Below, one piece after another: positions 2,809 to 29,735 of a stretch of 64,000 bases of DNA. The stretch lies in contig CBDEUK010000002.1 in the NCBI GenBank assembly GCA_965243205.1, positions 448,001 to 512,000 of the forward strand, read 5' to 3'. This DNA is from Gammaproteobacteria bacterium (GTDB lineage Bacteria > Pseudomonadota > Gammaproteobacteria > Eutrophobiales > Eutrophobiaceae). The notes below the pieces were generated by a model. It was given only the letters and a program-made list of their open reading frames with translations. It was not told where the DNA came from and searched no databases. Positions within the stretch are counted from its first letter, which is position 1, and each line of letters starts with the position of its first letter. The position numbers and the translations under genes are program-made.

Positions 2809-2835
2809 TAAAGAATTTTAGAAAACGGTCGTTAA
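2809..2835 (+). promoter_or_regulatory. Putative sigma28 (FliA) promoter
   Basis: TAAA-N15-GTCGTTAA against consensus TAAA-N15-GCCGATAA; predicted +1 (~2842) falls at the foot of the following hairpin. Confidence 0.55.
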
Positions 2836-2842
2836 ATGAATT

Positions 2843-2925
2843 ATCAGTGCGGATTTTCCTCCTTCCCCCTACGTATCCGAACTGAGATTTAAACTAATAG
2901 CCAGGTGATGAACCTGGCTTTTTTT
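2843..2925 (+). ncRNA. Candidate sRNA with a C-rich anti-SD loop and intrinsic terminator
   Basis: Stem TCAGT-G-CGGAT/ATCCG-A-ACTGA with loop TTTCCTCCTTCCCCCTACGT, then an AGCCAGGT/ACCTGGCT hairpin and T-run on the + strand where no ORF exists. Confidence 0.6.
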
Positions 2926-5197
2926 ATTCTTCTTGATCAGACTCAACTAAAATAGGCTTCATAAAAGCAACATTGCGAAATCCCCTCGGTAACATGCTGC
3001 CTCTACGACCACGTTCACTTACGTAGTGCTCTAAATCTGTTGGTTTTAAAGTTAATGTACGTTGACCCGAAGTGATTTCAATCGAGGCGTCTTCAGGATA
3101 AGCACATACTGCAGCCATGTATTCTTCTCGATTTTTGAGTTTATCGGTTGGGATTTGCATGATCTTATTGCCTTTACCTTTAGCTAACATCGGTAACTCT
3201 TCGACAGGAAATGTCATGAATCTCCCAGTTGAACTGACTGCCGCTATCCAATCATTTTCAGCATCTCTCACTAATGATGGCCTTAGCACTTTTGATGATT
3301 TAGGAACGCTGATAACTGCTTTACCATTTTTATTTTTAGTGAATAACGGCTCTAGATTACTCATAAACCCATAACCAGAATCAGTTGCTAGTAAATAAAT
3401 ATCTTCGTTCTCCCCCATCATTAGACCTTCAAAGGTTGCGCCATCGGGGGGATTTAAACGACTAGAAGCAGCTTCACCCAGACTTCGAGCAGAAGGCAAA
3501 CTATGTGCAGGTAAAGAATAGCAACGTCCACTTGAATCTAATAACATGGCTTGTTGATTACTCTTACCTTGAGCGGCCTGATTAAAACCATCGCCTGCTT
3601 TATAGTTAATGGATTCAGGATCAATATCATGGCCTTTAGCTGCACGGATCCAGCCTTTTTTAGATAAGATAACCGTAACACTTTCAGTTGGAATTAACGC
3701 TTTTTCATCGATTGCCTTAGCTTCTTCACGTTCTACCAATTTTGAACGTCTCTCATCACCAAAAGTTTCGGCATCAGCCAACAATTCTTTTTTAATTAAA
3801 GTTTTTAATCGTTGTTTAGAAGCAAGAATTTGTTGAAGCGAGTCACGTTCATTACTTAATTCATCCAACTCCCCTTTGATTTTCATTTCTTCAAGCTTGG
3901 CTAGCTTTCGAAGTTTTAATTCCAATACAGCTTCAGCTTGTTTATCACTTAGTTTGAAGCGTTTCATTAAAACTGGTTTCGGTTTATCTTCTTCACGAAT
4001 GATAGCGATCACTTCATCGATATTCAGATACGCAATCATCAAACCTTCTAAAATATGAATCTTGTCGAGTATTTTATCGAGTTGAAATTGCAAACGTTTG
4101 GTAACGGTTTCAGTTCGATAGGTTAACCATTCTTTTAAAATAATTTGCAAGTTTTTAACTTGAGGTCGACCGTTTAAACCAATCATATTCAAGTTAACTC
4201 GATAATTTTTTTCTAAGTCCGTCGTAGCAAATAAATGTGACATTAACGCTTCGAAATCAATTCGATTGGAACGAGGAACTAGAATAATTCGCGTAGGATT
4301 TTCATGATCCGATTCATCACGGATATCATCTAACATAGGAAGTTTTTTCGCCTGCATTTGTGCAGCAACTTGTTCTTGAATACGACTACCAGAACTTTGA
4401 TACGGCAATGCTGTAATCACTATGTTGCCGTTTTCTTTTTCCCACGTTGCACGCATTTTGATACTGCCATTTCCCGTTTCGTACAATTCTTGAATATCGG
4501 TAGCAGGGGTAATAATTTCTGCATTGGTTGGGAAATCAGGACCTTTAACATGCGTTAACAAATCTTTAACTGTGGCTTTTGGTGAATCCAATAAATGAAT
4601 ACACGCTGAAACAATTTCATTGAGATTATGCGGTGGGATATCTGTTGCCATACCAACTGCAATACCTGTTGTGCCATTTAATAAAACATTAGGTAAACGT
4701 GCTGGAAGTAATTTAGGTTCGTCTAAGGTTCCATCAAAATTAGGTTGCCACTCAACGGTACCTTGTTCGGTTTCACTGAGTAAAATATCGGAATATGCAG
4801 TCAGCTTAGATTCGGTGTATCTCATCGCTGCAAACGATTTTGGGTCATCCATCGAACCCCAGTTTCCTTGTCCATCTACTAACGGATAACGATACGAAAA
4901 CTCTTGAGCCATGTGCACCATTGCGTCATAACAAGCTGAGTCACCGTGTGGATGAAACTTGCCAATCACATCGCCTACGGTTCGCGCAGATTTTTTGTAT
5001 TTAGCTGTGGATTTAAGACCTAGCTCTGACATAGCGTAAACAATTCGCCTTTGTACTGGTTTTAAACCATCAGAGATATGAGGCAAAGCTCTGTCGAGAA
5101 TAACGTACATGGAATAATCCAAGTATGCTTGTTCGGTAAATTCGTTTAATGGACGTTGCTCTATCTGCTCAAAGTCCAAGCTCATGTTATCACTCAT
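2924..5197 (-). CDS. parC: DNA topoisomerase IV subunit A
   Basis: [26 protein letters not shown] catalytic Tyr; 757 aa; downstream of parE. Confidence 0.97.
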
Positions 5198-5224
5198 AAT
5201 TTTGTTATTTCACTGTATCTATTA

Positions 5225-5343
5225 TGTCTCTTAGAAAAGACAAAAAAACATTTTTAAGTTGAATATTCTCAATAATTAACTTTACATTATTTAATTAAAA
5301 TATTGATATTTAAATAATTTTATAAGCTGGCACTTGCGTTGCT
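5225..5343 (+). promoter_or_regulatory. sigma54 promoter with IHF site and enhancer-like palindrome
   Basis: TGGCAC-N5-TTGC at 5328-5342 (perfect -24/-12); IHF consensus YAANNNNTTGATW (TAAAATATTGATA) at 5296-5308; TGTC-N10-GACA at 5225-5242. Confidence 0.75.
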
Positions 5344-5353
5344 ATGATTTAAT

Positions 5354-5470
5354 TAAGCTTAACCTTTCTAAGTGGTTAGAAGGTTAACAACCGAATCAGG
5401 CCGGCTCTCTCTGTTTCTTAGTTAGAGATCACGTCGCAGGCAATATTGACAGGGATTGCTGGCTTGAACC
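5354..5470 (+). ncRNA. Candidate structured sigma54-dependent ncRNA between parE and parC
   Basis: Hairpin TTAACCTTTCTAA/TTAGAAGGTTAA (5359-5387). A 10-bp helix TCAGGCCGGC (5396-5405)/GCTGGCTTGA (5458-5467) pairs fully only on the + strand via two G-U pairs. No ORF. Confidence 0.5.
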
Positions 5471-5481
5471 AATTATCTTAA

Positions 5482-7374
5482 CTATTGCAATGATGCTAAA
5501 TCGCCCTTTGATTCTAACCAAGTTTTCCGATCAGGGGCACGCTTTTTAGCCAGCAACATATCAAGTAAGTCTACGGCTTTTTTTGGTTGTCCTGGCAAGG
5601 TCAATTGCACCAGCTTACGTGTTTCAGGCGCCATCGTAGTTTCACGTAATTGCATAGGGTTCATCTCCCCAAGCCCTTTAAACCGCTGGACGTTGACCTT
5701 GCCCCTCCTCTTTTCAGCACTAATTTGATCAAGAATTCCTTGTTTCTCATCATCGTCTAACGCGTAAAAAACATCTTTGCCAACATCAATACGAAACAAC
5801 GGTGGCATCGCCACATAGACATGTCCATTTTCAACCAATTGTCGGAAATGTCTCAAGAATAATGCACAAAGTAAGGTAGCGATATGCAGACCATCTGAAT
5901 CAGCATCCGCCAAAATACAAATCTTCCCATAACGCAATCCAGAAATATCCGCAGAACCTGGATCAACACCAATCGCCACAGCAATATCATGTACTTCTTT
6001 CGATGACAGTACTTGAGTTGAATCTACTTCCCAAGTATTTAAGATCTTACCTCTCAAAGGCATGACTGCTTGGAAATCCCGATCACGAGCTTGTTTAGCA
6101 GAACCACCCGCGGAATCACCTTCCACTAAAAATAATTCAGTGACTGTTAAATCTTGCATAGTGCAATCTGTTAACTTACCGGGTAACGCAGGTCCTCCAG
6201 TAACTTTTTTACGAACAACTTGTTTATTCGCTTTGAGTCTTCTTTGTGCAGATTGGATCGCAAGTTCTGCAACACGTTCTCCCATTTCAATATGTTGATG
6301 TAGCCATTGGCTAAACGAATCTTTAACAACACCTGAAACAAATGCAGCGCATTCTCGTGATGACAAACGTTCTTTTGTTTGACCCGCAAACTGTGGATCG
6401 TCTAATTTGACTGATAATAGATAGCTACAGCGATCCCAAACATCATCTGCGGTAAGCTTTACACCTCGTGGTAATAAGTTTCTGGCTTCGCAAAAATCTC
6501 TTAGCGCTTCCAATAAACCTTGTCTCAGACCATTAACATGGGTCCCACCTTGAGCAGTCGGAACTAGATTCACGTAACTTTCGGTAATTAAATCACCTTC
6601 TTCTGGTAACCAATGGATTGCCCATTCAACCGCTTCATGTTCAGCTTCCATATTGCCGAGAAACGGCTCAGGAGGAAGCAATTCAACACCTTCTAAACTC
6701 TCAGCTAAATAACTTTTTATACCATCTTCATAGAACCATTCGGTTTTATCTTTAGATTTTTCTTCAGTTAGCTTAATTGTTAAACCAGGAGCTAAAACAG
6801 CCTTCGCGCGTAATAAATGTTTTAGTTTGGCAATGGCTAAATTCGGTGATTCAAAGTATTTTTCGTTTGGCCAGAATCTCACAGAGGTTCCAGTATTACG
6901 TTTTCCAACGTCACCAATGACTTTTAAATCTTTGGTTTTATCGCCGTTAGCAAATGCGATTAAATATTCTTTACCTTCACGTTTAATTGTGACTTCTAGT
7001 TTTTTTGACAAGGCATTAACAACGGAGACACCCACACCATGTAAACCACCTGAAAACTTATAATTTTTATTCGAGAATTTACCTCCTGCATGCAGCTTAG
7101 TCAGAATCACTTCAACTCCAGAAATCTTTTGTTCCGGATGAATATCGACTGGCATCCCACGTCCGTCATCAGTGACGGTAACGGATTGGTCTTTGTGCAG
7201 AATCACCTCGATCGTTTTAGCATGGCCAGAAATGGCTTCATCCACACTATTATCAACGACTTCTTGGACTAGGTGATTGGGTCTGGTGGTATCAGTATAC
7301 ATGCCCGGTCGTTTGCGAACCGGTTCCAATCCCGTTAAAACTTCAATATCGGAAGCAGCGTAATCTTTTGCCAA
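5482..7374 (-). CDS. parE: DNA topoisomerase IV subunit B
   Basis: EVVDNSVDE, LHAGGKF, EGDSAGGS, DADSDG TOPRIM and RFKGLGEM motifs; 630 aa; TTG start. Confidence 0.97.
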   Translation of the reverse strand: MAKDYAASDIEVLTGLEPVRKRPGMYTDTTRPNHLVQEVVDNSVDEAISGHAKTIEVILHKDQSVTVTDDGRGMPVDIHPEQKISGVEVILTKLHAGGKFSNKNYKFSGGLHGVGVSVVNALSKKLEVTIKREGKEYLIAFANGDKTKDLKVIGDVGKRNTGTSVRFWPNEKYFESPNLAIAKLKHLLRAKAVLAPGLTIKLTEEKSKDKTEWFYEDGIKSYLAESLEGVELLPPEPFLGNMEAEHEAVEWAIHWLPEEGDLITESYVNLVPTAQGGTHVNGLRQGLLEALRDFCEARNLLPRGVKLTADDVWDRCSYLLSVKLDDPQFAGQTKERLSSRECAAFVSGVVKDSFSQWLHQHIEMGERVAELAIQSAQRRLKANKQVVRKKVTGGPALPGKLTDCTMQDLTVTELFLVEGDSAGGSAKQARDRDFQAVMPLRGKILNTWEVDSTQVLSSKEVHDIAVAIGVDPGSADISGLRYGKICILADADSDGLHIATLLCALFLRHFRQLVENGHVYVAMPPLFRIDVGKDVFYALDDDEKQGILDQISAEKRRGKVNVQRFKGLGEMNPMQLRETTMAPETRKLVQLTLPGQPKKAVDLLDMLLAKKRAPDRKTWLESKGDLASLQ

Positions 7375-7607
7375 GGAATAACCTCTTATTTATTCTTTAC
7401 TATGAAATAGCAGATGGTGTGCCCTAAAGGATGTCGATGATAAAACGTGGCGCTGCAATTGAACAGAGGCAATGTTATGCTTTTAAATTAATTTATCATT
7501 GAATCTTTATCAGAAAACTTGCATAAATTGTCGCAATCCCTATGCTGTGCGCTCTTTTTGAATAGTTAATGAAAACACGAACGTATTGCTAATCTGGAGA
7601 TATAACA

Positions 7608-7859
7608 TTGGCCAGAAAAAAATCTTCCAATCAATTTGAAGACTCACTGAATAAATTGGAGTCCATAGTAAAAAAAATGGAATCTGGTGATTTAACGTTA
7701 GAAGAATCTATTCAACAGTTTGAAGAAGGCATTGCATTGAGTCAAAGCTGCCAAAAAACCTTAGACGAAGCCGAACAGAAAATAAAAATCCTGATGCAAA
7801 AAAATGGTGACAATGAGTTAGTCGATTTTGATGATGATCAGGAGCAAGATGAAATTTAA
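7608..7859 (+). CDS. xseB: Exodeoxyribonuclease VII small subunit
   Basis: FEDSLNKLESIVKKMESGDLTLEESIQQFEEG pattern; precedes ispA. Confidence 0.95.
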   Translation: MARKKSSNQFEDSLNKLESIVKKMESGDLTLEESIQQFEEGIALSQSCQKTLDEAEQKIKILMQKNGDNELVDFDDDQEQDEI

Positions 7860-7861
7860 AT

Positions 7862-8752
7862 ATGGAATTAAAACAGCAACTAGAACAATACCAACAAGCC
7901 GTTGAACAAGCCCTTGACGATTGGCTACCAGCAAAAGAATTAAAACCTACGAATTTGCACAGCGCCATGCGCTATTCTGTGTTAAGTGAAGGTAAACGCA
8001 TCAGACCTGTTCTGGCCTATGCCGCAGGAGAGTCTTTAGGAATAGCTATTGAAAACTTAAATGGGCCTGCCTGTGCTGTGGAAATGATTCATGCTTACTC
8101 ATTAATCCATGATGATTTACCTGCAATGGATGACGATGACTTACGGCGTGGACGACCGACTTGTCATAAAGCGTATGATGAAGCGACTGCTATTCTAGCT
8201 GGAGACGCCTTACAAGCTTTGGCTTTCCATGTTTTAGCAAAAGACCAAAACATTCTTGTTGGACCTGAACAACGTTTAAAAATGATCAATGTATTGGCTA
8301 TTGCTAGTGGTTCAATCGGCATGGCGGGTGGTCAAGGTATCGACTTGGATTCAGTGGGTAAATCGCTCACCTTAGAAGAATTACAAGATATGCATTCGCG
8401 TAAAACCGGCGCTCTTATCCATGCAAGTGTGGAATTAGGTGCTTTATCGTCAAACGATGTCCAGAACAAACAGCTAGAGCAATTATCAACCTATGCTCAT
8501 AGTATCGGTTTAGCATTTCAAATACAGGACGATATTTTAGATATCGAAAGTGATACAGAAACCCTAGGTAAGCCACAAGGCTCTGATATTGCGAGAAATA
8601 AACCGACTTATCCTAATTTATTAGGCTTGGATGGTGCAAAAAAAGCTGCCAAAGATATGCATCAGCAAGCTCTAGATAGTCTTTCCGAGTTCGATAATAA
8701 AGCCGATACCCTACGTAAAATCGCTGACTATATTGTCCAACGAAATAAATAA
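7862..8752 (+). CDS. ispA: Farnesyl diphosphate synthase
   Basis: GKRIRP, HDDLPAMDDDDLRRG and FQIQDDILD motifs. Confidence 0.96.
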   Translation: MELKQQLEQYQQAVEQALDDWLPAKELKPTNLHSAMRYSVLSEGKRIRPVLAYAAGESLGIAIENLNGPACAVEMIHAYSLIHDDLPAMDDDDLRRGRPTCHKAYDEATAILAGDALQALAFHVLAKDQNILVGPEQRLKMINVLAIASGSIGMAGGQGIDLDSVGKSLTLEELQDMHSRKTGALIHASVELGALSSNDVQNKQLEQLSTYAHSIGLAFQIQDDILDIESDTETLGKPQGSDIARNKPTYPNLLGLDGAKKAAKDMHQQALDSLSEFDNKADTLRKIADYIVQRNK

Positions 8753-8829
8753 AGGATGTTAAGCCCTTGTAATCGGTCTAAAATATCCCATATAAGCACA
8801 GAATAATAATCTTAAGGTAGTAATTAAAA

Positions 8830-9642
8830 ATGAGTCAAAGCGCAGAAAACGTTAGCGAAAGCATACCTGATATTATGAAAAGTCAGGATACTCGCCAGAT
8901 CCCTATTGATCAGGTTGGAGTTAAGGGTATTCGTCATCCGGTAGTCGTTAATGATCGTTCTGGGCGTGAGCAACACACCGTTGCCAACTTCAACATGTAT
9001 GTGGCACTGCCTGCAGATTTCAAAGGCACTCACATGTCACGTTTTTTAGAGCTGTTAAATCAACATGAAGAAGAGATCACAGTTGAGTCATTTCGTACAA
9101 TGCTGAAAGAAATGGGCGATTTATTAGAAGCAAAAAGTGGCACGATTGAAATGGAATTTCCGTATTTCGTAATGAAAAAAGCTCCTGTTTCTGAAGTTAA
9201 AAGCATTATGGATTATGATGTTACCTTCATCGGTCAATTAGAAAACGGCAAGTCTGACGTGCTGGTAAAAGTCGTTGTACCAATAACGTCTCTTTGCCCT
9301 TGTTCTAAAAAGATTTCTGATTATGGTGCGCATAATCAACGCTCTCATGTCACTGTGTGTGTAAAAACCCGTGATTTTGTTTGGATTGAAGAATTAATTG
9401 ATTATGTCGAAAGCATCGCCTCTTGTCAGTTGTATGGCATATTAAAACGGCCAGATGAAAAATACGTTACCGAGCATGCTTATGAAAATCCAAAATTTGT
9501 GGAAGATATCGTGCGTGACGTCGCCATTTTATTCAATGACGACGACCGAATAGCCGCTTACACTGTTTCGTCTGAGAACTTCGAATCGATTCATAATCAT
9601 TCAGCCTACGCCAAAATTAGCAAAGACAAAGATAAGACTTAA
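8830..9642 (+). CDS. folE2: GTP cyclohydrolase IB FolE2
   Basis: [22 protein letters not shown] and ESIHNHSA motifs. Confidence 0.95.
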
Positions 9643-9655
9643 TCCATTTCCAATT

Positions 9656-9690
9656 TTAGGACGTCAAAATGCCAATATTTTGCCGTCCTA
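9656..9690. repeat. Imperfect inverted repeat (folE2 terminator or enhancer site)
   Basis: TAGGACGTCAAAAT ... ATTTTGCCGTCCTA; no T-tail; about 95-125 bp upstream of a sigma54 site. Confidence 0.45.
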
Positions 9691-9739
9691 ATCATTTCAA
9701 TTTGTTCTAAACACGCCTTCCCTAAAATTTAAAAAATTA

Positions 9740-9797
9740 TAAACCATTGATTATTAAGCTATAAATTTAATATGATTTTTTTGGCACAGCTTCTGCA
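9740..9797 (+). promoter_or_regulatory. sigma54 promoter with IHF site
   Basis: TTGGCACAGCTTCTGCA (GG-N10-GC, 9781-9797); IHF consensus TAAACCATTGATT at 9740-9752. Confidence 0.75.
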
Positions 9798-9807
9798 GTA
9801 GTGACAG

Positions 9808-9870
9808 CGTAGTTACTTCTCCTCCCCCTTTGTGTGAGTGGGTGCTGTTCATTCAGCACCCTATTTTTTT
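9808..9870 (+). ncRNA. Candidate ~60-nt sigma54-dependent sRNA with anti-SD seed
   Basis: Promoter, then TTCTCCTCCCCCTTT, then a GGGTGCTG/CAGCACCC hairpin and TATTTTTTT; no ORF. Confidence 0.7.
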
Positions 9871-9897
9871 GAACACTTCTCGGCTTTTCTCTTCTAA
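9871..9897 (+). promoter_or_regulatory. Putative sigmaE/ECF promoter
   Basis: GAACAC-N16-TCTAA against consensus GAACTT-N16-TCWRA. Confidence 0.4.
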
Positions 9898-9924
9898 GAA
9901 TTATTCATATAAACTTTGAACACC

Positions 9925-10218
9925 ATGAAAAAATTCTACTTTTTAATTGTATTTTTTACCTCTCCATTGGTTTTGGGTGATGCAGTACCTTTTTCAGATT
10001 TCAAATTTATTGATACAGGTATGTCAGAGGGAGAAGTCTTATATCGTATAGGTCCACCTGATCATGAGACTATTCAAAGTGATTTCTACCACAACATAAT
10101 TCGTAAAACCTGGTTTTACATTCCAGAAAAAAACACACCCACTTCTAGGCGTTGGATCAGTGAAGTGACTTTCGATTTCCGTGGGAATGTATCTAATACA
10201 AAGCGCTATCGTCCTTAA
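9925..10218 (+). CDS. Exported small protein, SmpA/BamE-like domain
   Basis: Signal peptide MKKFYFLIV...VLG, GMSEGEVLYRIGPPD and ..TWFY pattern; ATG at 9925 preferred over TTG 9916. Confidence 0.6.
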   Translation: MKKFYFLIVFFTSPLVLGDAVPFSDFKFIDTGMSEGEVLYRIGPPDHETIQSDFYHNIIRKTWFYIPEKNTPTSRRWISEVTFDFRGNVSNTKRYRP

Positions 10219-11012
10219 TTTTTTAAATCAATTTTAGCCTGTTCCCATAAAGCATCGAGAATTTCTAATTCTGTTTCTTCAACCTTCTGATCACGCTTAC
10301 GTAACTCTGCTTCGATGTATTGAAAACGTTGGGTGAATTTTTTATTGGTCTTTTGTAATGAGATTTCAGCATCAAGTTTGAGCCTTCTGGCAAGATTAAC
10401 GACTGAAAAGAATACATCACCGATTTCATCTGAGAGTTTAGCTTTATCCGCAGCTTGATCGATTTCATACTGTAACTCATTGCACTCTTCTTTGATTTTA
10501 TCAAATACAGATTGCATCTCGACCCAATCAAAGCCAACAGCAGCGGCTTTCTTTTGAATTTTCTGCGCTTGTTTTAAAGCAGGTAAGGTTTTTAATACGC
10601 CATCTAAAAGACTTTCGGGTTCTGAAGATTTATTTTTATCTACTCGTTCTTGTTGTTTAATCTTTTCCCAAGAACCTTTCACTTCTTCATCACTTTGGAA
10701 ATTTTCTTCGCCAAATACATGTGGATGTCGACGAATCATTTTGTCGCAAATACTTTTAACGACATCATCAAAGCTAAAATGCCCTAATTCTTTTGCCATT
10801 TGCGCGTGGTAAACCACTTGCAACAATAAATCACCCAATTCATCGCACAAAGCATCCATATCATTGTCCAATATAGCGTCTTGAACTTCATAGGCCTCTT
10901 CTAAGGTATAGGGAATGATGGTTTCAAAGTTTTGTTTTTTATCCCAAGGACAACCCGTTTCTGGATCGCGAAGGTCGGACATAATTTGCAATAAAGTTTC
11001 AATATTTGACAT
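10215..11012 (-). CDS. mazG: Nucleoside triphosphate pyrophosphohydrolase MazG
   Basis: LRDPETGCPWD, EEAYEV, ELGDLLLQVV and RRHPHVF motifs; tandem MazG domains; start at MSNIET (11012). Confidence 0.96.
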   Translation of the reverse strand: MSNIETLLQIMSDLRDPETGCPWDKKQNFETIIPYTLEEAYEVQDAILDNDMDALCDELGDLLLQVVYHAQMAKELGHFSFDDVVKSICDKMIRRHPHVFGEENFQSDEEVKGSWEKIKQQERVDKNKSSEPESLLDGVLKTLPALKQAQKIQKKAAAVGFDWVEMQSVFDKIKEECNELQYEIDQAADKAKLSDEIGDVFFSVVNLARRLKLDAEISLQKTNKKFTQRFQYIEAELRKRDQKVEETELEILDALWEQAKIDLKN

Positions 11013-11166
11013 TAAAAGCAACCGTAAATCTATGAAAATTAAAGATGACTTGATCAATCACCCGTTTTCGCATACAAAGAGATGCGTTTTTGTTGTGGCA
11101 TCTTTAAACCGTAACAATAAGCACTGTACAATGCACGCGCATACTTGATAAGTAAAAGTGACGCTT

Positions 11167-11739
11167 ATGACACCACTAATTTTAAGATTAGATATATCAG
11201 GCTCACCAGTTACCTGGATACCTTGGCAAGATGCAGTTTGTTTATACAGCCGAGATATGATCGCCTGGACCGCAGGAGAGAGTATATTTACTTTCAGGGG
11301 TGGTATTTGCCGTTTAACTGGCGAGCGTTCTACAGTCAGCATCAATTCCATTATTGCGATTAAGCGTTCTAATAAATACAACGTCAATAAGCGTATTATC
11401 CCACCACTGACTAACCGTGAATTATTCTTACGTGATGCACATTTATGCATGTATTGTGGCAATGAATTCAGTGAACGCTTGTTGACCCGAGATCATGTGA
11501 TGCCAATTTCTAAAGGCGGAAAAGATAAATGGTCGAATGTGGTGACAGCTTGTAAGCACTGTAATACTAAAAAAGGCAGTAAAACCCCTGAGCAAGCGCA
11601 TATGCCTTTGCTAGCGGTTCCTTTTGTACCAAATTGGGCTGAATACTTAGCGTTATCAAACCGTAAAATCTTAGTCGATCAAATGGATTTTCTAAAATCT
11701 CAGTTTTCTGGTCGCCCTATGCCATTCAACACTCAGTGA
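11167..11739 (+). CDS. HNH endonuclease
   Basis: LFLRDAHLCMYCG, TRDHVMPISKGG, WSNVVTACKHCNTKK. Confidence 0.9.
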   Translation: MTPLILRLDISGSPVTWIPWQDAVCLYSRDMIAWTAGESIFTFRGGICRLTGERSTVSINSIIAIKRSNKYNVNKRIIPPLTNRELFLRDAHLCMYCGNEFSERLLTRDHVMPISKGGKDKWSNVVTACKHCNTKKGSKTPEQAHMPLLAVPFVPNWAEYLALSNRKILVDQMDFLKSQFSGRPMPFNTQ

Positions 11740-11773
11740 TGTGTTCAGTAACATAGTTATCCGTTAATATTTC

Positions 11774-12952: not shown

Positions 12953-13012
12953 ATTAACTTGATATCGATATAATCCGGCTACAATTACAAATAAATATAA
13001 GAGGAAGTCTTT

Positions 13013-13390: not shown

Positions 13391-13602
13391 TTTCAAATTT
13401 TAAATGAAATAGCATTGCTATTTAGTTGAAATTATTATATTTTCACTAAAAGTTGTTGATAATAAAGTCAATAATTTATTGTTTTATAGATATTTAGTGA
13501 CAGATTTCATTGATTAATGCTATGAAATCGTTCATTATTTTGTTGGTTTAAAGATCTGGGGAAACCTAAGCTTAGAAATCCGTTATAAATGGGAGAAACA
13601 TA

Positions 13603-13887: not shown

Positions 13888-13909
13888 GAAACGTTTTATA
13901 CGCTTCAAT

Positions 13910-19523: not shown

Positions 19524-19547
19524 ATATTGATATCTCTTTAGTTTGTG

Positions 19548-20637: not shown

Positions 20638-20644
20638 TACTTTA

Positions 20645-21814: not shown

Positions 21815-21847
21815 ACCTTATAAACGAAACGAGTGATAGTATATTTA

Positions 21848-24800
21848 TTATAACTTTTTATCTTGATGATTTCTGATTATATTTAATTGTTTATCCAGTC
21901 TTTCTGGAGAAATTTTAATATTCGTTTTCATTTCTTGAGCAAACAAGGATATTCGAAATTCTTCAATCATCCATCGATAGTCAAATACATTCTTATCAAA
22001 ATTTTCAGTTTTTTTCTGTAAAGCATCCATTTCTATATACTTACTCCAATAAGGTAAAAGTTTGTTTAAATTCTGTTGATCTTTTTTTAATGAAGAATCT
22101 AGCTTTTCTATCCTATATATGATCGCTGATAAATATTTTGGGTATTTCTCCAACCACTTATAAGGCACATTTTTTATAAACCCTAATGGCATTAAAAAAT
22201 CCATTTGAGATTGAATATCTCCTTTCACCAAGTTCAGATTTTCGCTTTTTAAATTCCTTAACAACCTTAAAATAGTTTGATACTGTTTAAACATATCAGA
22301 AATTAGTGGCATAAACTCATTGATACTCGCGATAAATTTAATTTGTTCACGCTGTAAAATCTCATCGAAACCTTGTTTCGTTCTGGTAATGCTATATTTA
22401 TCTATAAAAGAATGTTCAATTGTTTTATAAATAATTTCCTGAATTAATTGCTCTTTGCTATAACCACTATTTAATAAAGTAATTGCTATTTTATTATCTA
22501 AAAGATTCTTTTTAACATATTTAATATCTTTTCGAAGGTATTTCTGAAATAGTTTATTTAAACCATTTCTCATCGATAATTCAGCTTTCGCCTCAACATC
22601 AAATGATTTAATAGAAATAACATCATCTTTTTCAAGCAATGCGGGAAACAGTGTGATTTCAATATCATTGATTTTTGAGATATATGAAACTGGTAAATCA
22701 GGAAAATCCCAGACTTCAATATTATCTCTTTCAAATTCTGATTGATGTGTCACATCAATCAGCTGGTCAATCTTTTCTGCTAGATCCGATTTAATAGCTT
22801 TTACATCACGTCCCTCGGCAATACAACTACCTTCTTCATCGATTATTTTTATATTTAACAATAGGTGTTCAGGTATTGATGTGACATCAAAATCTTTTTC
22901 TTTTATTTTTATACCACGAGTTTTGAAAACAAATTCAATTAAACCATGAACTATATTTCCATTCAGATATGATATATTTTTTTCACATTCATCAACGAAC
23001 TCAGGCAATGGCACAAACTGTTTTCTGATTGATTTTGGTAATGATTTTAATAAATAGGTCAATCGTTGCTTAGATAAACCAGGAACAATTGAATGGTAAA
23101 TTGACTCATCTAGCTTATTTAATAGAATTATTGGTACTTCTAATGAAGCACCATCATCTTTAGATTCAGGTGAAAAATTATAGGTAATAGGCAATTCAGA
23201 TTTTTGAATAACAATACTGTCTGGAAAAAGATGTTCTATACTATCATCTAAATTTTCTTCTTTTAATAAATCATTATCTTGAATAAACAAATATTCTCTA
23301 TCTTCTTTTTCAATTTTTTTTCGCCAACCATCCAAAGTTTGCAAACTACAAACATTAACAGGTAGTTTGTTGTCATAAAATTCAAACACGACAGATTCAT
23401 CCAACTTATCTTGACGTCTGGTTTTAGCTTCTAATAATCGTGCATTTTCAATCAACGTTTTATTATGCATATAATACTTTGCATCACTATTAAGTTTCAG
23501 ATTGATAAATGCTTCTTCTATAAAAAGCTTTCTCGCTTCTTGTGAATTTATTTTTCCGAAATTGACTGGTTGTTTCGCAACTATAACTAAACCATATAAA
23601 CTGATACTTTCATAAGCCGTGATTTGTTGTTTTTTATCATCCCAATGCGGCTCAGTATAACTACGTTGAACAAGATGTTTTGCTGGCTTTAACACCCATT
23701 TCGGATCGATTTTAGCGACTGTTCTAGCAAATAATTTACTGGTTTCAGCAATCTCAGCCGACATAATCCATTTCGGCATTACTTTAAACTGACTGGAACC
23801 TGGGAAAATATTCAACTTACTTCCGCGCGCACCTAAATAATTTTTTTCATCATCTTTAATCGCTAAGTGGCTAAGTAAACCCGCAATGATTGCGCAATGA
23901 ATATTATTGTAATCAGCTGCTTCGGAATTCATTGAATACTTAAGTTCTTTAACAATATCTTTTAATTGACGATGTATATCTTGCCACTCATTCATTCTGT
24001 TAAAAGACAAATAATTTGTTTTACAAAGTTTTTTTAACTGATTTTTTGAAAGCTGTTTAGATTGCTTTTGATAAAACTGCCAAAGATTAATGTAACGTAA
24101 AAAATCCGAATATTGATGATCAAATTGTTTATGAGCTTCGTCCGCTTTACCAGGTTCATCTAGTGGCCTTTCTCTTGGATCTAAAATACTCAAAGCACTA
24201 ATGATAATTAATATTTCATTGACACAATGATAACTTTTAGCTGCGATTAACATACGACCAAATCGCGGTTCAACTGGCAAACGCGATAATTCTTTACCAA
24301 TCGCTGTTAATTCTTGTTGTTTATCTAATGCTGATAACTCGGTTAATAACCGTAGACCATCATTGATATAACGTTGGTTAGGCTTTGTTATAAATGGAAA
24401 ATCACTGATATCACCCAACCGCATTGATTTCATTTGTAATATAACAGTCGCAAGGTTAGTTCTTAGAATCTCAGGCTCAGTAAAACATGAACGTTGTTCG
24501 AAATCGTCCTCCGAATACAAACGAATACATACACCTTCATGTGTTCGTCCACAACGTCCTTTTCGCTGATTAGCAGCCGCTTGCGAAATCTTTTCAACAG
24601 GCAAACGTTGAATCTTGCTTTTGTAACTATAACGACTGATTTTGGCATAACCTAGGTCAATCACAAATGAAATTCCTGGAATCGTTAGCGATGTTTCGGC
24701 CACATTAGTTGCCAAAATAATGTGACGTTTATTATGCGGCTTGAAAATTTTTGACTGGCCTTCACTGGTTAATCGAGAATACAACGGTAGGATTTCAGTA

Positions 24801-25741
24801 TTGGATAAAGATTGCTTACGTAAAAACGTCAGCATCTCATGAATTTCTCGTTCGCCAGGTAGAAAGACAAGAATATCACCTAAACCAACATGTCCTAATT
24901 CTGTTATTGCATCGTGTAGAACATTCTGAGTCGCTGCTTCTTCATCGGCAGCATCCTCTAACGGACGATAACGAACTTCAACTGGATATGTACGCCCTTC
25001 TACTTGAATAATTGGCGCATCATTAAAATGTTCAGAAAATTGTTCAACATCGATTGTTGCTGAAGTAATGATAACTTTTAAATCTGGGCGTTTTGGCAAT
25101 AATCGTTTTAGATACCCCAAGATAAAATCAATATTGAGACTGCGCTCATGAGCTTCATCAATGATCAAAACCTCATAGTCATTCAGCCATCGGTCTTTCT
25201 GCATTTCTGCTAACAGCACACCGTCGGTCATTAATTTGATATAAGTCTCATCCGATGTCTTATCATTATGACGGATCTTATAACCAACCCCTTTGCCCAA
25301 TGGCATATCCAATTCCTTAGCTAATCGGTTTGCTATGGATTTTGCTGCTAACCTTCTTGGCTGAGTATGGCCCACTAAACCTTTTGCACCATAACCTTGG
25401 GCTAAACAAATTTTTGGAAGTTGAGTCGTTTTGCCCGAACCGGTTTCACCACATACTACTATCAATTGATTTTCGTTCAGTAATCTCGAAATTTCTTCTA
25501 CATGCGAATAAATTGGCAAATCTTGGTTATACGTAATCTCTGACAGATTATTACGTTTTTTATTGACATAATTCATAGAATTATCAATGTCTTGTTGTAA
25601 TTTATTAAATAAATTTTTAGTTTTTTGGCTTGACCCTTGCTTGAGTTTTGATAATTGAGAACGAAATAAATATTGTTCCCTCATACGGCATTGAGGGATT
25701 TTATTTTTAAGGGTACTCAGCTCGGATATATCAAAGGACAT
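21848..25741 (-). CDS. hrpA: ATP-dependent RNA helicase HrpA
   Basis: GETGSGKTTQ, DEAH, SAT and QRKGRCGR motifs; C-terminal RWMIEEFRISLFAQ; 1297 aa. Confidence 0.96.
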   Translation of the reverse strand: MSFDISELSTLKNKIPQCRMREQYLFRSQLSKLKQGSSQKTKNLFNKLQQDIDNSMNYVNKKRNNLSEITYNQDLPIYSHVEEISRLLNENQLIVVCGETGSGKTTQLPKICLAQGYGAKGLVGHTQPRRLAAKSIANRLAKELDMPLGKGVGYKIRHNDKTSDETYIKLMTDGVLLAEMQKDRWLNDYEVLIIDEAHERSLNIDFILGYLKRLLPKRPDLKVIITSATIDVEQFSEHFNDAPIIQVEGRTYPVEVRYRPLEDAADEEAATQNVLHDAITELGHVGLGDILVFLPGEREIHEMLTFLRKQSLSNTEILPLYSRLTSEGQSKIFKPHNKRHIILATNVAETSLTIPGISFVIDLGYAKISRYSYKSKIQRLPVEKISQAAANQRKGRCGRTHEGVCIRLYSEDDFEQRSCFTEPEILRTNLATVILQMKSMRLGDISDFPFITKPNQRYINDGLRLLTELSALDKQQELTAIGKELSRLPVEPRFGRMLIAAKSYHCVNEILIIISALSILDPRERPLDEPGKADEAHKQFDHQYSDFLRYINLWQFYQKQSKQLSKNQLKKLCKTNYLSFNRMNEWQDIHRQLKDIVKELKYSMNSEAADYNNIHCAIIAGLLSHLAIKDDEKNYLGARGSKLNIFPGSSQFKVMPKWIMSAEIAETSKLFARTVAKIDPKWVLKPAKHLVQRSYTEPHWDDKKQQITAYESISLYGLVIVAKQPVNFGKINSQEARKLFIEEAFINLKLNSDAKYYMHNKTLIENARLLEAKTRRQDKLDESVVFEFYDNKLPVNVCSLQTLDGWRKKIEKEDREYLFIQDNDLLKEENLDDSIEHLFPDSIVIQKSELPITYNFSPESKDDGASLEVPIILLNKLDESIYHSIVPGLSKQRLTYLLKSLPKSIRKQFVPLPEFVDECEKNISYLNGNIVHGLIEFVFKTRGIKIKEKDFDVTSIPEHLLLNIKIIDEEGSCIAEGRDVKAIKSDLAEKIDQLIDVTHQSEFERDNIEVWDFPDLPVSYISKINDIEITLFPALLEKDDVISIKSFDVEAKAELSMRNGLNKLFQKYLRKDIKYVKKNLLDNKIAITLLNSGYSKEQLIQEIIYKTIEHSFIDKYSITRTKQGFDEILQREQIKFIASINEFMPLISDMFKQYQTILRLLRNLKSENLNLVKGDIQSQMDFLMPLGFIKNVPYKWLEKYPKYLSAIIYRIEKLDSSLKKDQQNLNKLLPYWSKYIEMDALQKKTENFDKNVFDYRWMIEEFRISLFAQEMKTNIKISPERLDKQLNIIRNHQDKKL

Positions 25742-25965
25742 TTAACACGCTTTAAAAGGTAAAAATTACGTTTATGGGATTCAGTTTCTGCATGATGAAA
25801 TATGAAAAAACCAGTATTTTTCAGGCATTAAGCATTTATTTATCTTGTAATTCCTCAAACTACTGGTACGATGAGAAAATTGTCATATAACAAATCTGAA
25901 TCTGTATTTGCAGCGATAATACTAATCATTATGCAAATAGCAACATATGCTCGAGCGGAATACTA

Positions 25966-27906
25966 ATGCGGTTGGATTTTGAACTCGCTGGCAGCCAAAT
26001 TGATGGTGCAAGAGACTATCAAGAGGACGCCTTTTTAATTACACATCTGACTGATACCGATGGTAATCCAAGTGCCTTAATTATTGTGGCCGATGGCATG
26101 GGCGGGCATGCTGCAGGCAACGTAGCCAGTAATATGGCCGTTCAAGCCTTCAATAAGCACGTAAGCAGCCATTATCCTACCTTAGCTGTTTCAAAAATCC
26201 TCGAAGAAGCCGTTGATAAAGCCAATTTATCTATTCGTGAAACCATAGAAGAAACCCCCGCTCTACAAGGCATGGGGTGCACGATGATCGGGGCCATATT
26301 GGAAAAAGGCAAAATTTGGTGGGCTAGCGTTGGTGATTCACATTTATATTTGGTAAGAGAAAGTGGTATAGCAAAAATCAACCAAGACCACAGCTATGGT
26401 GGTTTTATTGATCGCATGGAAGCTGCTGGTAAATTCATCGAGCCCGATCCAGGCCTTACCCGAAATATGCTCATGAGCGCTATAACGGGTGAAACCGTTA
26501 ATGAAATCGATTGTCCAGATACTCCTCGAGAACTCTATCCAGATGATCGTGTACTTATTTGCACCGATGGTATGGATACATTAAGTAACGGCAAAATTCT
26601 CGAGTTTATGACCAATGGCAATAATCCGAAAGAATGCTCGGATAGCTTGATGCAAGCCGTTATCGACGCTGACATGCCTCGTCAAGATAATACTACTGCT
26701 GTCGTTGCAAATATCTCTGGCGAAAAAATTAGCTCTAAACCACTTGAACAACCTGTTGCTGAGACAGAAAACGGTATTGCTGAAGATAATCTCAATATAG
26801 AAGCTATTGAAGAAAACTTAACAGCTGAAAGCATTAATATTCCGAAGCCAGAAACAGACCCTTATCAAAGTAATATCGATGATTATCCTGATAGCGACAA
26901 AAGTTATACCGGTTTAATTATTTCAGCCTTAGCATTATTAGTATTAATTGGCATCGGTGTTTACTACTTCCTACCAAAATCACCGACTGATACACCACCA
27001 ATTGTCACAACACCAATTGAAGAGCCATCCGAAATTGAAGTCACTGATATAGTAGATGAACCACTTGAAGACGAATTAGATGAAGAAACGGAAGAAATTG
27101 ATGAACCCCTTGAGGATGAACTGGAAGAATTATCTGAACCAGAAACTGAAGTCGCCGTAGTGATTCCTATAGAAGTTGAAGAGTTCACTGATAAACTAAA
27201 CTCTGGCGGTAACAGCCCTACAATGGTTAAGTTACCTGCTGGAAAATTTAAAATGGGTAATTCCAATACAACACGTTTCGCCAATGAACAACCTGTTCAT
27301 GATGTTAATATTAATGCCTTTGCAATCAGCAAATATGAAATAACGTTTGCCCAATATGACCGTTTTGCTAAAGCCACAGGCAGAGGTTTACCAAACAGCA
27401 AGGGCTTATCTCGTTCTGAAAATCCAGTATCAAAAATCAGCTGGGCTAATGCCAAAGCCTATACTGAATGGTTATCGAAACAAACAGGACAGAGCTATCA
27501 ACTTCCAACAGAAGCTCAATGGGAGTATGCAGCAACTGCTGGTGAGAAAGAACCATATCCTTGGGGTTATAAAGAACTGTCAGGAAAAGCCCATTGTTTA
27601 ACATGTAATATGCCTAACCAACCAATCAAACAAACCAAGGTTGGTAGTTATCCAGTCAATAAATTTGGTTTGCATGATATGAACGGAAACGTAGCCGAAT
27701 GGGTGCAGGAATGTTGGCATCGTAACTATGCAGATGCTCCTTCTACTGGCGAATTACGAACGGGTGGAGATTGTTCGTATCGCACCGTTAGAGGTGGAAG
27801 TTTTGAAAGCCCCCAAAGCTCTTTACGTAGCCAGCGGCGTGATAAATACGGGGCTAAAAATACTTATGATAATATTGGATTTAGAGTCGTCAGAATACTT
27901 GATTAA
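25966..27906 (+). CDS. PP2C Ser/Thr phosphatase - TM - FGE-sulfatase (SUMF1) domain fusion
   Basis: RDYQED, VADGMGGH, VGDS, CTDG and DNTT (PP2C); one TM; acidic linker; YEITFAQY, LPTEAQWEYAA, GNVAEW, RGGSF and GFRVV (FGE domain). Confidence 0.88.
   Translation: MRLDFELAGSQIDGARDYQEDAFLITHLTDTDGNPSALIIVADGMGGHAAGNVASNMAVQAFNKHVSSHYPTLAVSKILEEAVDKANLSIRETIEETPALQGMGCTMIGAILEKGKIWWASVGDSHLYLVRESGIAKINQDHSYGGFIDRMEAAGKFIEPDPGLTRNMLMSAITGETVNEIDCPDTPRELYPDDRVLICTDGMDTLSNGKILEFMTNGNNPKECSDSLMQAVIDADMPRQDNTTAVVANISGEKISSKPLEQPVAETENGIAEDNLNIEAIEENLTAESINIPKPETDPYQSNIDDYPDSDKSYTGLIISALALLVLIGIGVYYFLPKSPTDTPPIVTTPIEEPSEIEVTDIVDEPLEDELDEETEEIDEPLEDELEELSEPETEVAVVIPIEVEEFTDKLNSGGNSPTMVKLPAGKFKMGNSNTTRFANEQPVHDVNINAFAISKYEITFAQYDRFAKATGRGLPNSKGLSRSENPVSKISWANAKAYTEWLSKQTGQSYQLPTEAQWEYAATAGEKEPYPWGYKELSGKAHCLTCNMPNQPIKQTKVGSYPVNKFGLHDMNGNVAEWVQECWHRNYADAPSTGELRTGGDCSYRTVRGGSFESPQSSLRSQRRDKYGAKNTYDNIGFRVVRILD
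27055..27129 (+). repeat. Degenerate 45-bp-period tandem duplication encoding DEPLEDEL
   Basis: GATGAACCACTTGAAGACGAATTAGA / GATGAACCCCTTGAGGATGAACTGGA. Confidence 0.65.
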
Positions 27907-27963
27907 ATCTTGAAATAAACCGCGTCCATGCGGTACAACTTCGTCCAATCCTTTTAAAACTAT

Positions 27964-28701
27964 TTATTTACTATCTTCTTTACGTCCACCAATCAAGACT
28001 AAACCTGCTGTTGCTGATAAGAATAGAGGTAAGCTATCAGGCAATGGCACTGGTTGTGGATTCAAATCTATATTTAAACTACCACCACCACGCTTTCTAC
28101 CATTAATAGCATCAAAAAATTGTAATTGTGCTGAAGCACCAAAAAATATATTTTTGTTGTTAGCACCCTCGCCTATTTGAAATCCTGAATTAATTAAAGA
28201 GAACTCAAACGTAGCGGCATCTTTATCGGCAGGCTGGAAACCATCATTTAATGTTCCTTCATCTAATAAATAACCTGACCAACCTGCGGTTGAAGTATTA
28301 CCAGTATATTGCCAAGTATTGGTATCAACAGGTCCACCTTTTTCAGTATAAGCCTTGCCTTTGAGTTGTTTCTTTGGATTAGTTACAGGTGTTGATGAAA
28401 GATCATTAAATTCTGCATAAACATCATATGTTTTTACACCATTACTGATCCTTGCCATTAATACTGCGTTGTTACTATCATCAACATTCAAAAAGCCAAA
28501 ATTATCAACAATAGTAAATTCTTTGGACTCTGTCTTGCCACCACGGATATTTTTATTATTGATTTTAAATGCATAGCCATCTCCGCAAACTCTGCCATAA
28601 CTATCGCAAAATGCTTCTTTTGCATCGTAAACCATTGCAGACATGGCACTTGAAGAAACGAATAAAAGCAATAATGTAGTGATTAGTTGTTTCATAGTCA
28701 T
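27964..28701 (-). CDS. Secreted protein with VPLPA/PEP-CTERM-type sorting signal
   Basis: Signal peptide; C-terminal PVPLPDSLPLFLSATAGLVLIGGRK. Confidence 0.82.
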   Translation of the reverse strand: MTMKQLITTLLLLFVSSSAMSAMVYDAKEAFCDSYGRVCGDGYAFKINNKNIRGGKTESKEFTIVDNFGFLNVDDSNNAVLMARISNGVKTYDVYAEFNDLSSTPVTNPKKQLKGKAYTEKGGPVDTNTWQYTGNTSTAGWSGYLLDEGTLNDGFQPADKDAATFEFSLINSGFQIGEGANNKNIFFGASAQLQFFDAINGRKRGGGSLNIDLNPQPVPLPDSLPLFLSATAGLVLIGGRKEDSK

Positions 28702-28730
28702 AATTTTATTTTTAAACTTAATATGACTAT

Positions 28731-28840
28731 GGCGAAGAATGTGCCAATAAATTTTATGCTTGGTAAAACAGTAGTTTATAAAACTAGTGAGAAGTAGTTC
28801 TCAGAGGGTTTTTTATAAAATGTGTCAGGTTTCTCCGACA
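28731..28840 (-). promoter_or_regulatory. sigma54 promoter with enhancer palindrome for the VPLPA-CTERM gene
   Basis: TTGGCACATTCTTCGC (GG-N10-GC) on the - strand at 28747-28732; TGTC-N10-GACA at 28823-28840. Confidence 0.65.
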
Positions 28841-28897
28841 AACACCTTGTGAACTAGTTAACATTCCCTTTTTTATCAAAAACTTACATGAATTTTA

Positions 28898-28913
28898 TGT
28901 GATTTTTATCACA
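28898..28913. promoter_or_regulatory. CRP-like binding site
   Basis: Exact TGTGA-N6-TCACA. Confidence 0.5.
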
Positions 28914-28915
28914 GT

Positions 28916-29200
28916 TTAAGATTCATCTTTATCGCTATGACCTAAGTCTTTATCAGGCGCGATAACATCTCTTATAAGTTGTTTCAGTTCTTTTGATTCG
29001 GGAAATTTTCCCATGTCTTTTTTTGAATGAATTACGGTTTCGTTAATCAAAACTTCAAAGACACCGCCACTTCCAGGACGCAGAGCAAGCTCCTCGATTT
29101 CATCGGCAAATGTCATTAATAACTCCTGAGCTAACCAACTGGCTCTGAGAATAAAACGACATTGAGAACAATAGTGGATAGTGACTTTAGCTTTTTTCAT
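28916..29200 (-). CDS. SelT/SelW/SelH (Rdx) family protein
   Basis: IHYCSQC, RASWLAQELL, GGVFEV, DLGHSD. Confidence 0.92.
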   Translation of the reverse strand: MKKAKVTIHYCSQCRFILRASWLAQELLMTFADEIEELALRPGSGGVFEVLINETVIHSKKDMGKFPESKELKQLIRDVIAPDKDLGHSDKDES

Positions 29201-29215
29201 TCGTGATTTAATTTT

Positions 29216-29242
29216 GAACTCATTGGAAGAAGTCGTATCTAC
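29216..29242 (+). promoter_or_regulatory. Putative sigmaE/ECF promoter
   Basis: GAACTC-N16-TCTAC about 20 bp upstream of the ATG. Confidence 0.4.
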
Positions 29243-29262
29243 TTAGAAACGAGGTATTGATT

Positions 29263-29679
29263 ATGAAAAATATAAAATATTTATTAGCAATTTTAGCATT
29301 TTCATTAATGTCTACAACTGCATCAGCAGGCGTAAAAATAATTTTTAATAATGGTGGCTATGGTCATTACCCAGTCCATTATTCTTATAAGAATTATAAC
29401 AGGCACTATAATAATCGGTATTATAAACACAGATATTATCAACCGCGTCCCAAATACTATCGACATTATAATAATGCATATAGAACACCTTCATATCCTT
29501 ATGCTTATAAAAGACCAATAAATAAATATAAACATTATTACCACAACCCTGGTTACTATAACCACAAACCTCATAGATCATATAAAAATAAATATAGAAA
29601 ATATAAGTATCATCAACGTGGTTATGGAAATTATCACAATAAGTATAGGAAAGGCCGTCTGACAAATAGAAGATATTAA
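29263..29679 (+). CDS. Secreted Tyr/His/Lys/Arg/Asn-rich low-complexity protein
   Basis: GAGG RBS, signal peptide ending ASA; about 30 Tyr and no Asp/Glu in the mature part; followed by a terminator. Confidence 0.75.
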   Translation: MKNIKYLLAILAFSLMSTTASAGVKIIFNNGGYGHYPVHYSYKNYNRHYNNRYYKHRYYQPRPKYYRHYNNAYRTPSYPYAYKRPINKYKHYYHNPGYYNHKPHRSYKNKYRKYKYHQRGYGNYHNKYRKGRLTNRRY

Positions 29680-29709
29680 TTTACGATTTCATCTACACCT
29701 CCTCAACCC

Positions 29710-29735
29710 AGGGCAGCTAACCACTGCCCTTTTTT
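29710..29735 (+). terminator. Intrinsic terminator
   Basis: AGGGCAG-N7-CTGCCCT-TTTTT. Confidence 0.8.

Follow-up and report, generated by a model that had tools for sequence, protein, structure and literature searches.

The 64,000-nucleotide (nt) stretch analyzed here, referred to as the window, spans positions 448001 to 512000 of contig C2 of host genome G000 (2.79 Mb, 36% GC, 100% complete). It carries three CU-rich tracts, designated E1 (~2842-2925), E2 (~9808-9870), and E3 (29696-29735), which an initial annotation interpreted as sibling small RNAs (sRNAs) with anti-Shine-Dalgarno (anti-SD) seeds, each placed behind a different alternative sigma factor. Comparative evidence indicates that E1 and E2 are real, uncatalogued sRNA genes, while E3 is unsupported. 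With a confidence a little above even, we favor the reading that E1 and E2 are conserved, unrelated, and likely trans-acting sRNAs of the polar-flagellum cascade that are predicted to repress translation. Its observed base consists of conserved promoter boxes with freely varying spacers, an unpaired seed, covarying stems, terminators, fixed loci, and no conserved antisense open reading frame (ORF). The window also contains epmB, parC/parE, folE2, pqq genes, and amtB; judging from gene content, the host looks like a methylotroph-like gammaproteobacterium. FliA, RpoN, Hfq, and FleQ are all encoded in its genome.

Comparative evidence at the three sites

Each of the three CU-rich seed strings matches exactly at its own position (2855, 9817, and 29696) and nowhere else, and each is followed by a U-tailed terminator. 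The promoter motifs assigned to them are present as well (sigma28 at 2809, sigma54 at 9782, and sigmaE-like at 29216), but the sigmaE-like motif does not front the third seed. It instead precedes a 138-amino-acid (aa) ORF by 22 nt (to the ATG) and lies ~470 nt upstream of the E3 seed. Among 259 intergenic terminators, only those of E1 and E2 have at least 8 C residues in a 12-nt pyrimidine window upstream, with 0.33 (shuffles) to 0.84 (random intergenic sequence) expected by chance; taken alone, the single-genome rarity of C-rich windows makes a weak case. A looser anti-SD hexamer precedes 17 of the 259 terminators, compared with 6.5 in shuffles (maximum of 15 in 200 shuffles). Hexamer-bearing 3' untranslated regions (UTRs), with the hexamer just before the terminator, include those at G000:C2:245806, 663976, and 777759. 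We take conservation across genomes to be the decisive evidence for the sites.

BLAST with E1 as the query found no true homologue in 61 genomes, so the comparison relied on synteny, patterns, and covariance models. Sigma, IHF, and NtrC sites were scored with general consensus motifs. An E1 model built from five sequences (the host and four relatives found by patterns) produced 44 matches at E ≤ 0.5 in the family comparison set of 126 genomes; 24 of these fell at E < 1e-4, including the 5 training sequences. The best 28 loci were inspected, of which 25 adjoin epmB and/or parC and 3 were dropped as nonsyntenic. The syntenic orthologues thus cover 25 of the 126 genomes and 6 genera, and every one of them has the sigma28-type boxes, the CU tract in a 5' stem loop, and the terminator. 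In the stem alignment, pairing holds in 89.7% of cells, and both partners have changed in 11 of the 16 pairs; none of 500 shuffles reached the observed covariation, and slid controls were lower. Across 30 homologues, pairwise identity is 0.92 in the -35 box and 0.73 in the -10 box, against 0.35 in the spacer, and the promoter geometry is kept in 27. The seed has a mean unpaired probability of 0.95 and is unpaired in 28 of the 30. Since E1 more often follows epmB, a survey of 30 parC-downstream regions recovered it in only 2.

The host sigma28 motif also precedes flagellin, cheV, and cheY (these names, together with fleS, fliL, flgB, fliE, pilA, glnK, nirB, pntA, xoxF, and fae, were assigned by eye from N-terminal sequence). 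The host genome holds 33 sigma28 sites, and only at E1 is there a terminator downstream. A loose sigma28 pattern returned mostly coding-region noise and was set aside. In 150 genomes from outside the family, the E1 model matched 8 at E ≤ 0.01. The full anatomy beside parC or epmB occurs in four published genomes (G258, G213, G193, and G157) and in one unpublished genome (G164, which is not used as sole support for any claim); G229 carries the anatomy at a different locus, the match in G262 is without the CU loop, and that in G181 looks like chance. Hairpins with an E1-like CU loop and no sigma28 promoter were also seen in relatives (L144, L147, and L268), one of them being the terminator itself, downstream of a fimbrial-like gene.

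For E2, a pattern joining the sigma54 motif to the seed matched 22 of the 126 family genomes, once each, and a reversed-pattern control matched none. Inspection found 20 of these to be real and 2 to lie inside coding regions. A model built from the 20 matched 34 genomes, comprising 31 syntenic loci (folE2/mazG; 9 genera), 2 look-alikes elsewhere, and 1 chance match. The two orthologues without a canonical sigma54 motif belong to near-complete genomes that have no FleQ or FliA match. In the terminator, 98.5% of cells pair, with 10 double-sided changes (20 sequences); the seed is unpaired in 29 of 31 orthologues, and the seed stem exceeds flank-shuffled controls in 26. Metagenome matches were syntenic in 11 of 15 cases and unrelated in 4. 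Outside the family, the genomes and loci searched yielded E2 only at 1 of 80 folE2 loci, which shared the syntenic arrangement; in the five E1-positive outside-family genomes, the best match had an E value of 0.17. The two look-alikes (L228:1505-1617, plus strand; L229:1551-1663, minus strand) consist of a sigma54 motif, a CU seed resembling that of E3, and a terminator between queG-like and perM-like genes. The queG/perM gap is short in the host genome, and no such unit is listed there.

A 14-bp box lies ~90 nt before the E2 promoter. The FleQ box has been described as 14 bp with two inverted hexamers (PMC10723142). Scored against it, the E2 upstream regions show 3.2 mismatches in 12 positions, compared with 4.8 in shuffles (30 regions, omitting G007, in which the upstream region is rearranged), and 28 of 30 regions have a FleQ-like box within 4 mismatches versus 29% of shuffles. 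The nitrogen signal originally proposed as the input to E2 did not hold up, as the NtrC box gives 5.3 mismatches against 5.1 in shuffles. The resemblance to the FleQ rather than the NtrC consensus leads us to read E2 as flagellar rather than nitrogen driven, with FleQ as its likeliest activator. When a matrix of E2 boxes (host left out) was applied to 36 host sigma54 promoters, fleS came 3rd, fliL 8th, flgB 10th, fliE 12th, and glnK 13th; both in the host and in 2.0 of the 2.66 Mb of relative G131, the next-highest scores go to flagellar sigma54 promoters, although not to them alone. The second-best match to the box in the host stands at a sigma54 promoter before a signaling-type gene (G000:C2:305306, minus strand). 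An IHF-like site lies within 1 mismatch of the general consensus in 27 of 31 orthologues, a count from an AT-rich region and with no null.

E1 and E2 thus stand as conserved, stand-alone units with sigma28- and sigma54-type motifs and an exposed anti-SD/C-run seed. Each has the features generally expected of a trans-acting sRNA, namely, its own promoter motif and terminator, conservation, and an unpaired seed; E3 does not. The label of siblings applies to function at most: the E1/E2 seed type is common to both, but there is no alignable body or structure family. Neither is a family already described in Rfam, as the window gives no hits at the gathering threshold of Rfam 15, nor do 19 orthologue loci.

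The E3 seed begins 17 nt after the stop codon of the 138-aa ORF, and the sigmaE-like motif precedes the ATG of that ORF; E3 is therefore read as a 3' UTR, likely that of an ordinary gene with an extracytoplasmic function (ECF) promoter. Similar ORFs of low complexity lie next to ampG in G007, G014, G019, G123, and G131. An ECF-like motif is visible by eye upstream of the counterpart ORFs, and the strict pattern matches in none of four. CU tracts following the E3-type ORF in G019 and G123 proved to be the opposite strand of the last codons of ampG and were rejected. The only same-genus genome has no ampG match, so the closest comparison for E3 is missing. We assign a small probability to the full trio, in which E3 would be a functional, lineage-specific, 3'-UTR-derived anti-SD sRNA cut from a sigmaE-driven mRNA, an idea that overlaps the other readings. 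It could draw on the presence of the seed and terminator, on the excess of anti-SD hexamers before terminators, several of them in 3' UTRs, and on the two relatives with a sigma54 unit and a similar seed elsewhere. Against it, no seed plus terminator follows the counterpart ORF in any of five relatives, and the exact E3 pattern is absent from all five genomes searched.

Table 1. Positions of E1, E2, E3, and associated features in the window
Feature	Position	Strand	Basis
Sigma28-type promoter of E1 (-35, 14-nt spacer, -10)	2809..2835	+	Motif search, homologue alignment
E1, predicted ~84-nt sRNA, start inferred from promoter	2842..2925	+	Fold, 25 syntenic orthologues, covariation
E1 5' stem with 20-nt CU loop, then AU-rich linker and terminator	stem 2844-2885	+	Fold
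E1 seed in hairpin loop (anti-SD + C-run)	2855..2870	+	Unpaired probability
E1 intrinsic terminator; U-tract overlaps convergent parC stop codon	2899..2925	+	Terminator prediction
epmB, conserved E1 neighbor, own terminator at 1902	918..1889	+	Gene annotation, synteny
folE2, conserved upstream neighbor of E2	8830..9642	+	Annotation, synteny
14-bp enhancer-like box, FleQ-type; second overlapping half-site from 9663	9671..9684	+	Motif discovery upstream of E2
IHF-like site between box and sigma54 promoter	9740..9752	-	Consensus match
Sigma54 -24/-12 motif of E2	9782..9796	+	Motif search; kept in 29/31 orthologues
E2, predicted ~63-nt sRNA, start inferred; exposed CU seed 9817-9831, terminator 9840-9870	9808..9870	+	31 syntenic orthologues
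ECF/sigmaE-like promoter motif of downstream 97-aa ORF (9925-10218), after E2 terminator	9871..9896	+	21/30 orthologous loci
Sigma E-like motif of ORF 29263-29679 mRNA, not of a short RNA	29216..29241	+	Motif search
138-aa His/Tyr/Arg-rich ORF, signal-peptide-like start, no Pfam/NCBIfam hit	29263..29679	+	ORF, profile search
E3 CU tract + terminator in 3' UTR of that ORF	29696..29735	+	Terminator prediction; no relative match
amtB G-run ribosome-binding site; amtB 57234-58541	58547..58559	-	Pairing-energy ranking

Candidate targets and competing explanations

The favored reading would place E2 under FleQ and sigma54 at the middle step of flagellum building and E1 under sigma28 at the late step, so that both would be transcribed in a sigma-dependent manner. 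The CU loop of either RNA would nucleate on a G-run SD and block 30S loading, thereby repressing the target. Hfq probably helps the pairing, given that the Hfq gene is present and both RNAs end in U-tails. Both seeds combine an anti-SD stretch with a C-run that the 16S tail lacks, which suggests a preference for leaders with GGGG; such leaders make up ~4% (106/2574) of those in the host. The best candidate targets would be amt/amtB, fleQ, and strongly translated one-carbon (C1)/redox genes, with fleQ pairing, best supported for E1, acting as feedback on the cascade.

Leaders were ranked genome-wide by predicted pairing, with gene starts taken from a crude ORF caller (2,574 ORFs). The initial annotation had named two candidate targets in the window. 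Of these, amtB ranks 1 (E1) and 2 (E2), whereas the porin leader is middling (ranks 224, 650, and 157, and 13 and 23 of 622 in the two-genome list below) and was dropped as a priority target. In 10 relatives, 9 of 12 amt leaders have a G-run by eye, only 2 being positional orthologues. The fleQ leader ranks 27 (E1) and 25 (E2), the best of 83 flagellar-region starts; it and a fliE-like leader are the only high-ranking flagellar leaders. A G-run is present in 17 of 23 fleQ leaders, compared with 9 of 163 other starts in the same genomes, and matched E1-fleQ pairs modestly beat mismatched ones (P = 0.014; P values here and below overstate the significance, as the genomes compared are related and not independent). 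Host fleQ (G000:C1:281107, minus strand) has a non-AUG start codon. A ranking of the host against G131, covering the 622 of 1,127 orthologue pairs with matching N termini, is headed by pntA, amtB, xoxF, fae, a second amt, glnK, and ftsZ; fleQ is absent from it. The caveat raised at the outset, that such seeds pair with any strong SD, is borne out: the predicted target energies of E1 and E2 correlate at 0.93, and each correlates at 0.78 to 0.79 with those of the 16S tail. Because predicted pairing tracks plain SD strength and no fleQ link is seen outside the family, target evidence is weak, and the genes named are candidates only.

In favor of the flagellar reading, FliA matches occur in 18 of 25 E1 carriers, versus 26 of the 126 family genomes overall. 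Several observations weigh against it. The other 7 E1 carriers have no FliA match, and 8 FliA-positive genomes have no E1 match. Four of five FliA-negative carriers tested are also without flagellin, two of them 96 to 98% complete. The FleQ-like box is a loose, AT-rich pseudopalindrome, and pilA- and nirB-like promoters score too. The 5' stem around the E2 seed is weak, with at least 4 enclosing pairs in only 12 of 31 orthologues. With regard to targets, enrichment of the flagellar region is not clear (P = 0.08 and 0.04), E2-fleQ pairs give no matching signal (P = 0.50), and the fleQ G-run is absent from all four genomes of genus g16. As 15 of 23 fleQ starts are non-AUG, the G-run may merely support such starts. 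Between orthologues, pairing energies correlate at 0.48 and 0.50 for the two seeds and at 0.50 for the 16S tail. The fleQ G-run was also rejected as a marker of E1 outside the family, being found in 2 of 5 versus 14 of 45 genomes (50 of 66 FleQ-positive genomes counted).

Some of these points bear on an unlikely alternative in which both RNAs are genuine anti-SD sRNAs but E2 is controlled by a nonflagellar sigma54 activator (NtrC-type, PilR, or other), the two having only a generic seed in common. The host encodes 12 proteins with a sigma54-activator domain, 10 of 31 E2 carriers have no FleQ match, several of them with a strong box, and leaders of amt and glnK are among the high-ranking ones in two genomes. 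The NtrC box, however, is not enriched upstream of E2, as noted above; the 14-bp spacing matches FleQ and flagellar promoters; and 23 genomes carry E1 and E2 together. It is quite unlikely that the RNAs lack selected targets and act broadly, as general decoys that lower the translation of whichever messages have a strong SD or as C-rich sponges or protein ligands. The close correlation of E1 and E2 target energies and their tracking of the 16S tail would suit such a role, as would a two-genome ranking made up mainly of strong-SD genes and a C-run whose length varies between orthologues. Yet the conserved C-run extends beyond the 16S tail, G-runs persist in the amt and fleQ leaders, and sX13 shows that C-loop/4G pairing can be selective (PMC3771888).

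Roles in cis carry a very small probability; under these, E2 would be a leader, attenuator, or anti-SD insulator of the downstream ORF, and E1 would be either the terminator region of parC or the SD belonging to a very small antisense ORF. Within sigma54 promoters, CT-rich motifs have been described as able to silence a downstream ribosome-binding site (RBS) (bioRxiv 10.1101/086108), and the E1 hairpin, taken on the parC strand, resembles a weak terminator. Such insulation, though, requires a motif no more than 25 bp from the SD, and the E2 seed lies ~90 nt upstream, behind a terminator. The ORF after E2 is preceded by an ECF-like motif of its own in 21 of 30 loci and is missing from 5 of 31 E2-bearing loci, so that E2 is not read as a leader. 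E1 is retained at loci where parC is not adjacent, and an antisense SD, start, and 8 codons are not conserved, occurring in only 4 of 25 E1 loci and 7 of 31 E2 loci.

Beyond the favored reading of two flagellar-cascade sRNAs lies a wider one, which we regard as possible but doubtful. The FleQ-sigma54 and sigma28 tiers would each drive a stand-alone sRNA whose C-run/anti-SD loop arose by convergence. Joined by sigmaE- and CRP-type look-alikes at other sites of the host genome, these would form an OR-gate on one class of G-run leaders (those of fleQ, ammonium transporters, transhydrogenase genes, and methanol/formaldehyde genes), linking motility with C1 metabolism and the uptake of nutrients. 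In this reading, E1 would also represent an overlooked sigma28 sRNA family found across several gammaproteobacterial families.

Known systems and other units

In their proposed wiring, E1 and E2 most resemble sRNAs of Campylobacter jejuni. FlmE (CJnc230) is sigma54 dependent and has two stem-loops separated by an anti-SD stretch; it arises by processing of the flgE mRNA and represses flgM, while FlmR (CJnc170/CjNC4) is sigma28 dependent and predicted to target sigma54 flagellar leaders (PMC11187230, PMC4626219). They form a sigma54 and sigma28 sRNA pair in the flagellar cascade aimed at ribosome-binding regions, an arrangement that is predicted for E1 and E2. E1 and E2 differ in standing alone outside the flagellar cluster, in having one seed type, and in showing no clear flagellar-leader preference except for fleQ. 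C. jejuni also belongs to a different class, and FlmE derives from the flgE 3' region, whereas E2 follows folE2 with its own promoter motif. The sigma28 sRNAs of Escherichia coli (MotR, FliX, UhpU, and FlgO) are reported to be UTR derived, to pair partly inside coding regions, and to feed back on flagellar synthesis (PMC10578931); E1 resembles them as a predicted sigma28-driven pairing RNA, but it would be an independent intergenic gene with an anti-SD loop.

The predicted mode of action is instead closest to those of sX13 and the cuckoo/NfeR1 RNAs. In Xanthomonas, the C-rich hairpin loops of sX13 repress mRNAs that carry a 4G motif close to the start codon, and ~5% of genes are given as having 4G motifs at the RBS (PMC3771888), against ~4% in the present host. 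As described there, sX13 has three C-rich loops, lies at the polA locus, and is Hfq independent; E1 and E2 have one seed each, sit at epmB/parC and folE2/mazG, and have alternative-sigma promoters. Cuckoo/CcsR and alpha-r14/NfeR1 display an anti-SD motif in a hairpin loop with variable stems and act by RBS occlusion (PMC4615179, PMC10746234), which is also predicted for E1 and E2. These RNAs have two to four adjacent hairpins, each with CCUCCUCCC; E1 and E2 have a single seed, and the exact motif is absent from the window copies. They are also alphaproteobacterial, while the present host has EpmB, Gram-negative ParC/ParE, and nearest folE2 relatives in the Gammaproteobacteria, and the NfeR1 promoter, as described, is without the sigma54 signature seen at E2. 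Among Rfam families of likewise short, CU-rich RNAs with a terminator, RF02278 (Betaproteobacteria toxic sRNA) scores 15.2 bits against a gathering threshold of 50; RF02274 (AniS) scores 19.2 against 50, RF02877 (NmsRb) 17.4 against 52, and RF02343 (ar9) 28.2 against 45. E1 and E2 thus fall outside each compared system on loop number, motif, locus, or biogenesis. No description of either locus was found in the literature searched; supplementary sRNA tables, which lay outside that search, could hold unnamed copies.

Further units of related type were noted in the host. At G000:C2:~1875170-1875020 (minus strand), a sigmaE-like promoter leads into three hairpins whose loops are C-rich, the whole being convergent with an engB-like gene. 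This unit is a better candidate than E3 for a sigmaE anti-SD RNA and lends some support to the broader proposal that several anti-SD RNAs answer to different regulators. The presence of a CU tract and a hairpin was confirmed at one further host site. The flagellar gene region contains a tandem pair of nearly identical ~140-nt units (G000:C1:267015 and 266714, minus strand, in L275) that have a sigma54 motif, several hairpins, and a terminator; in 2.0 Mb of G131, they have only a 40-nt weak match. In the window, a sigma54 motif in the parE-parC gap (5328-5482, plus strand) has two stable hairpins (-39.9 kcal/mol) downstream, which point toward the end of parE in antisense orientation, and the corresponding gap in G131 has no sigma54 motif. 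Sigma54 leaders ending in terminators precede nitrate-related genes at G000:C2:1673485 and 1148080 (minus strand), and we take these to resemble ANTAR/NasT-type attenuators. Finally, an HNH-endonuclease-like ORF beside mazG (11158-11739, plus strand) is conserved in 16 relatives, with weak IscB/Cas9d matches far below the cutoff.

Possible meaning for flagellar regulation

Flagellar-cascade sRNAs in E. coli and Campylobacter and anti-SD pairing as a mode of action are already known. The present analysis defines two sRNA families absent from Rfam, with alignments, promoter motifs, and loci. As E1 recurs at a fixed locus in other gammaproteobacterial families, a cultured carrier suitable for testing may exist. 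If the favored reading is true, a stand-alone pair under FleQ/sigma54 and sigma28 would extend flagellar sRNAs to FleQ-type polar flagella and to marine methylotroph-like bacteria, and it would make testable how near-generic anti-SD seeds gain specificity via a C-run.

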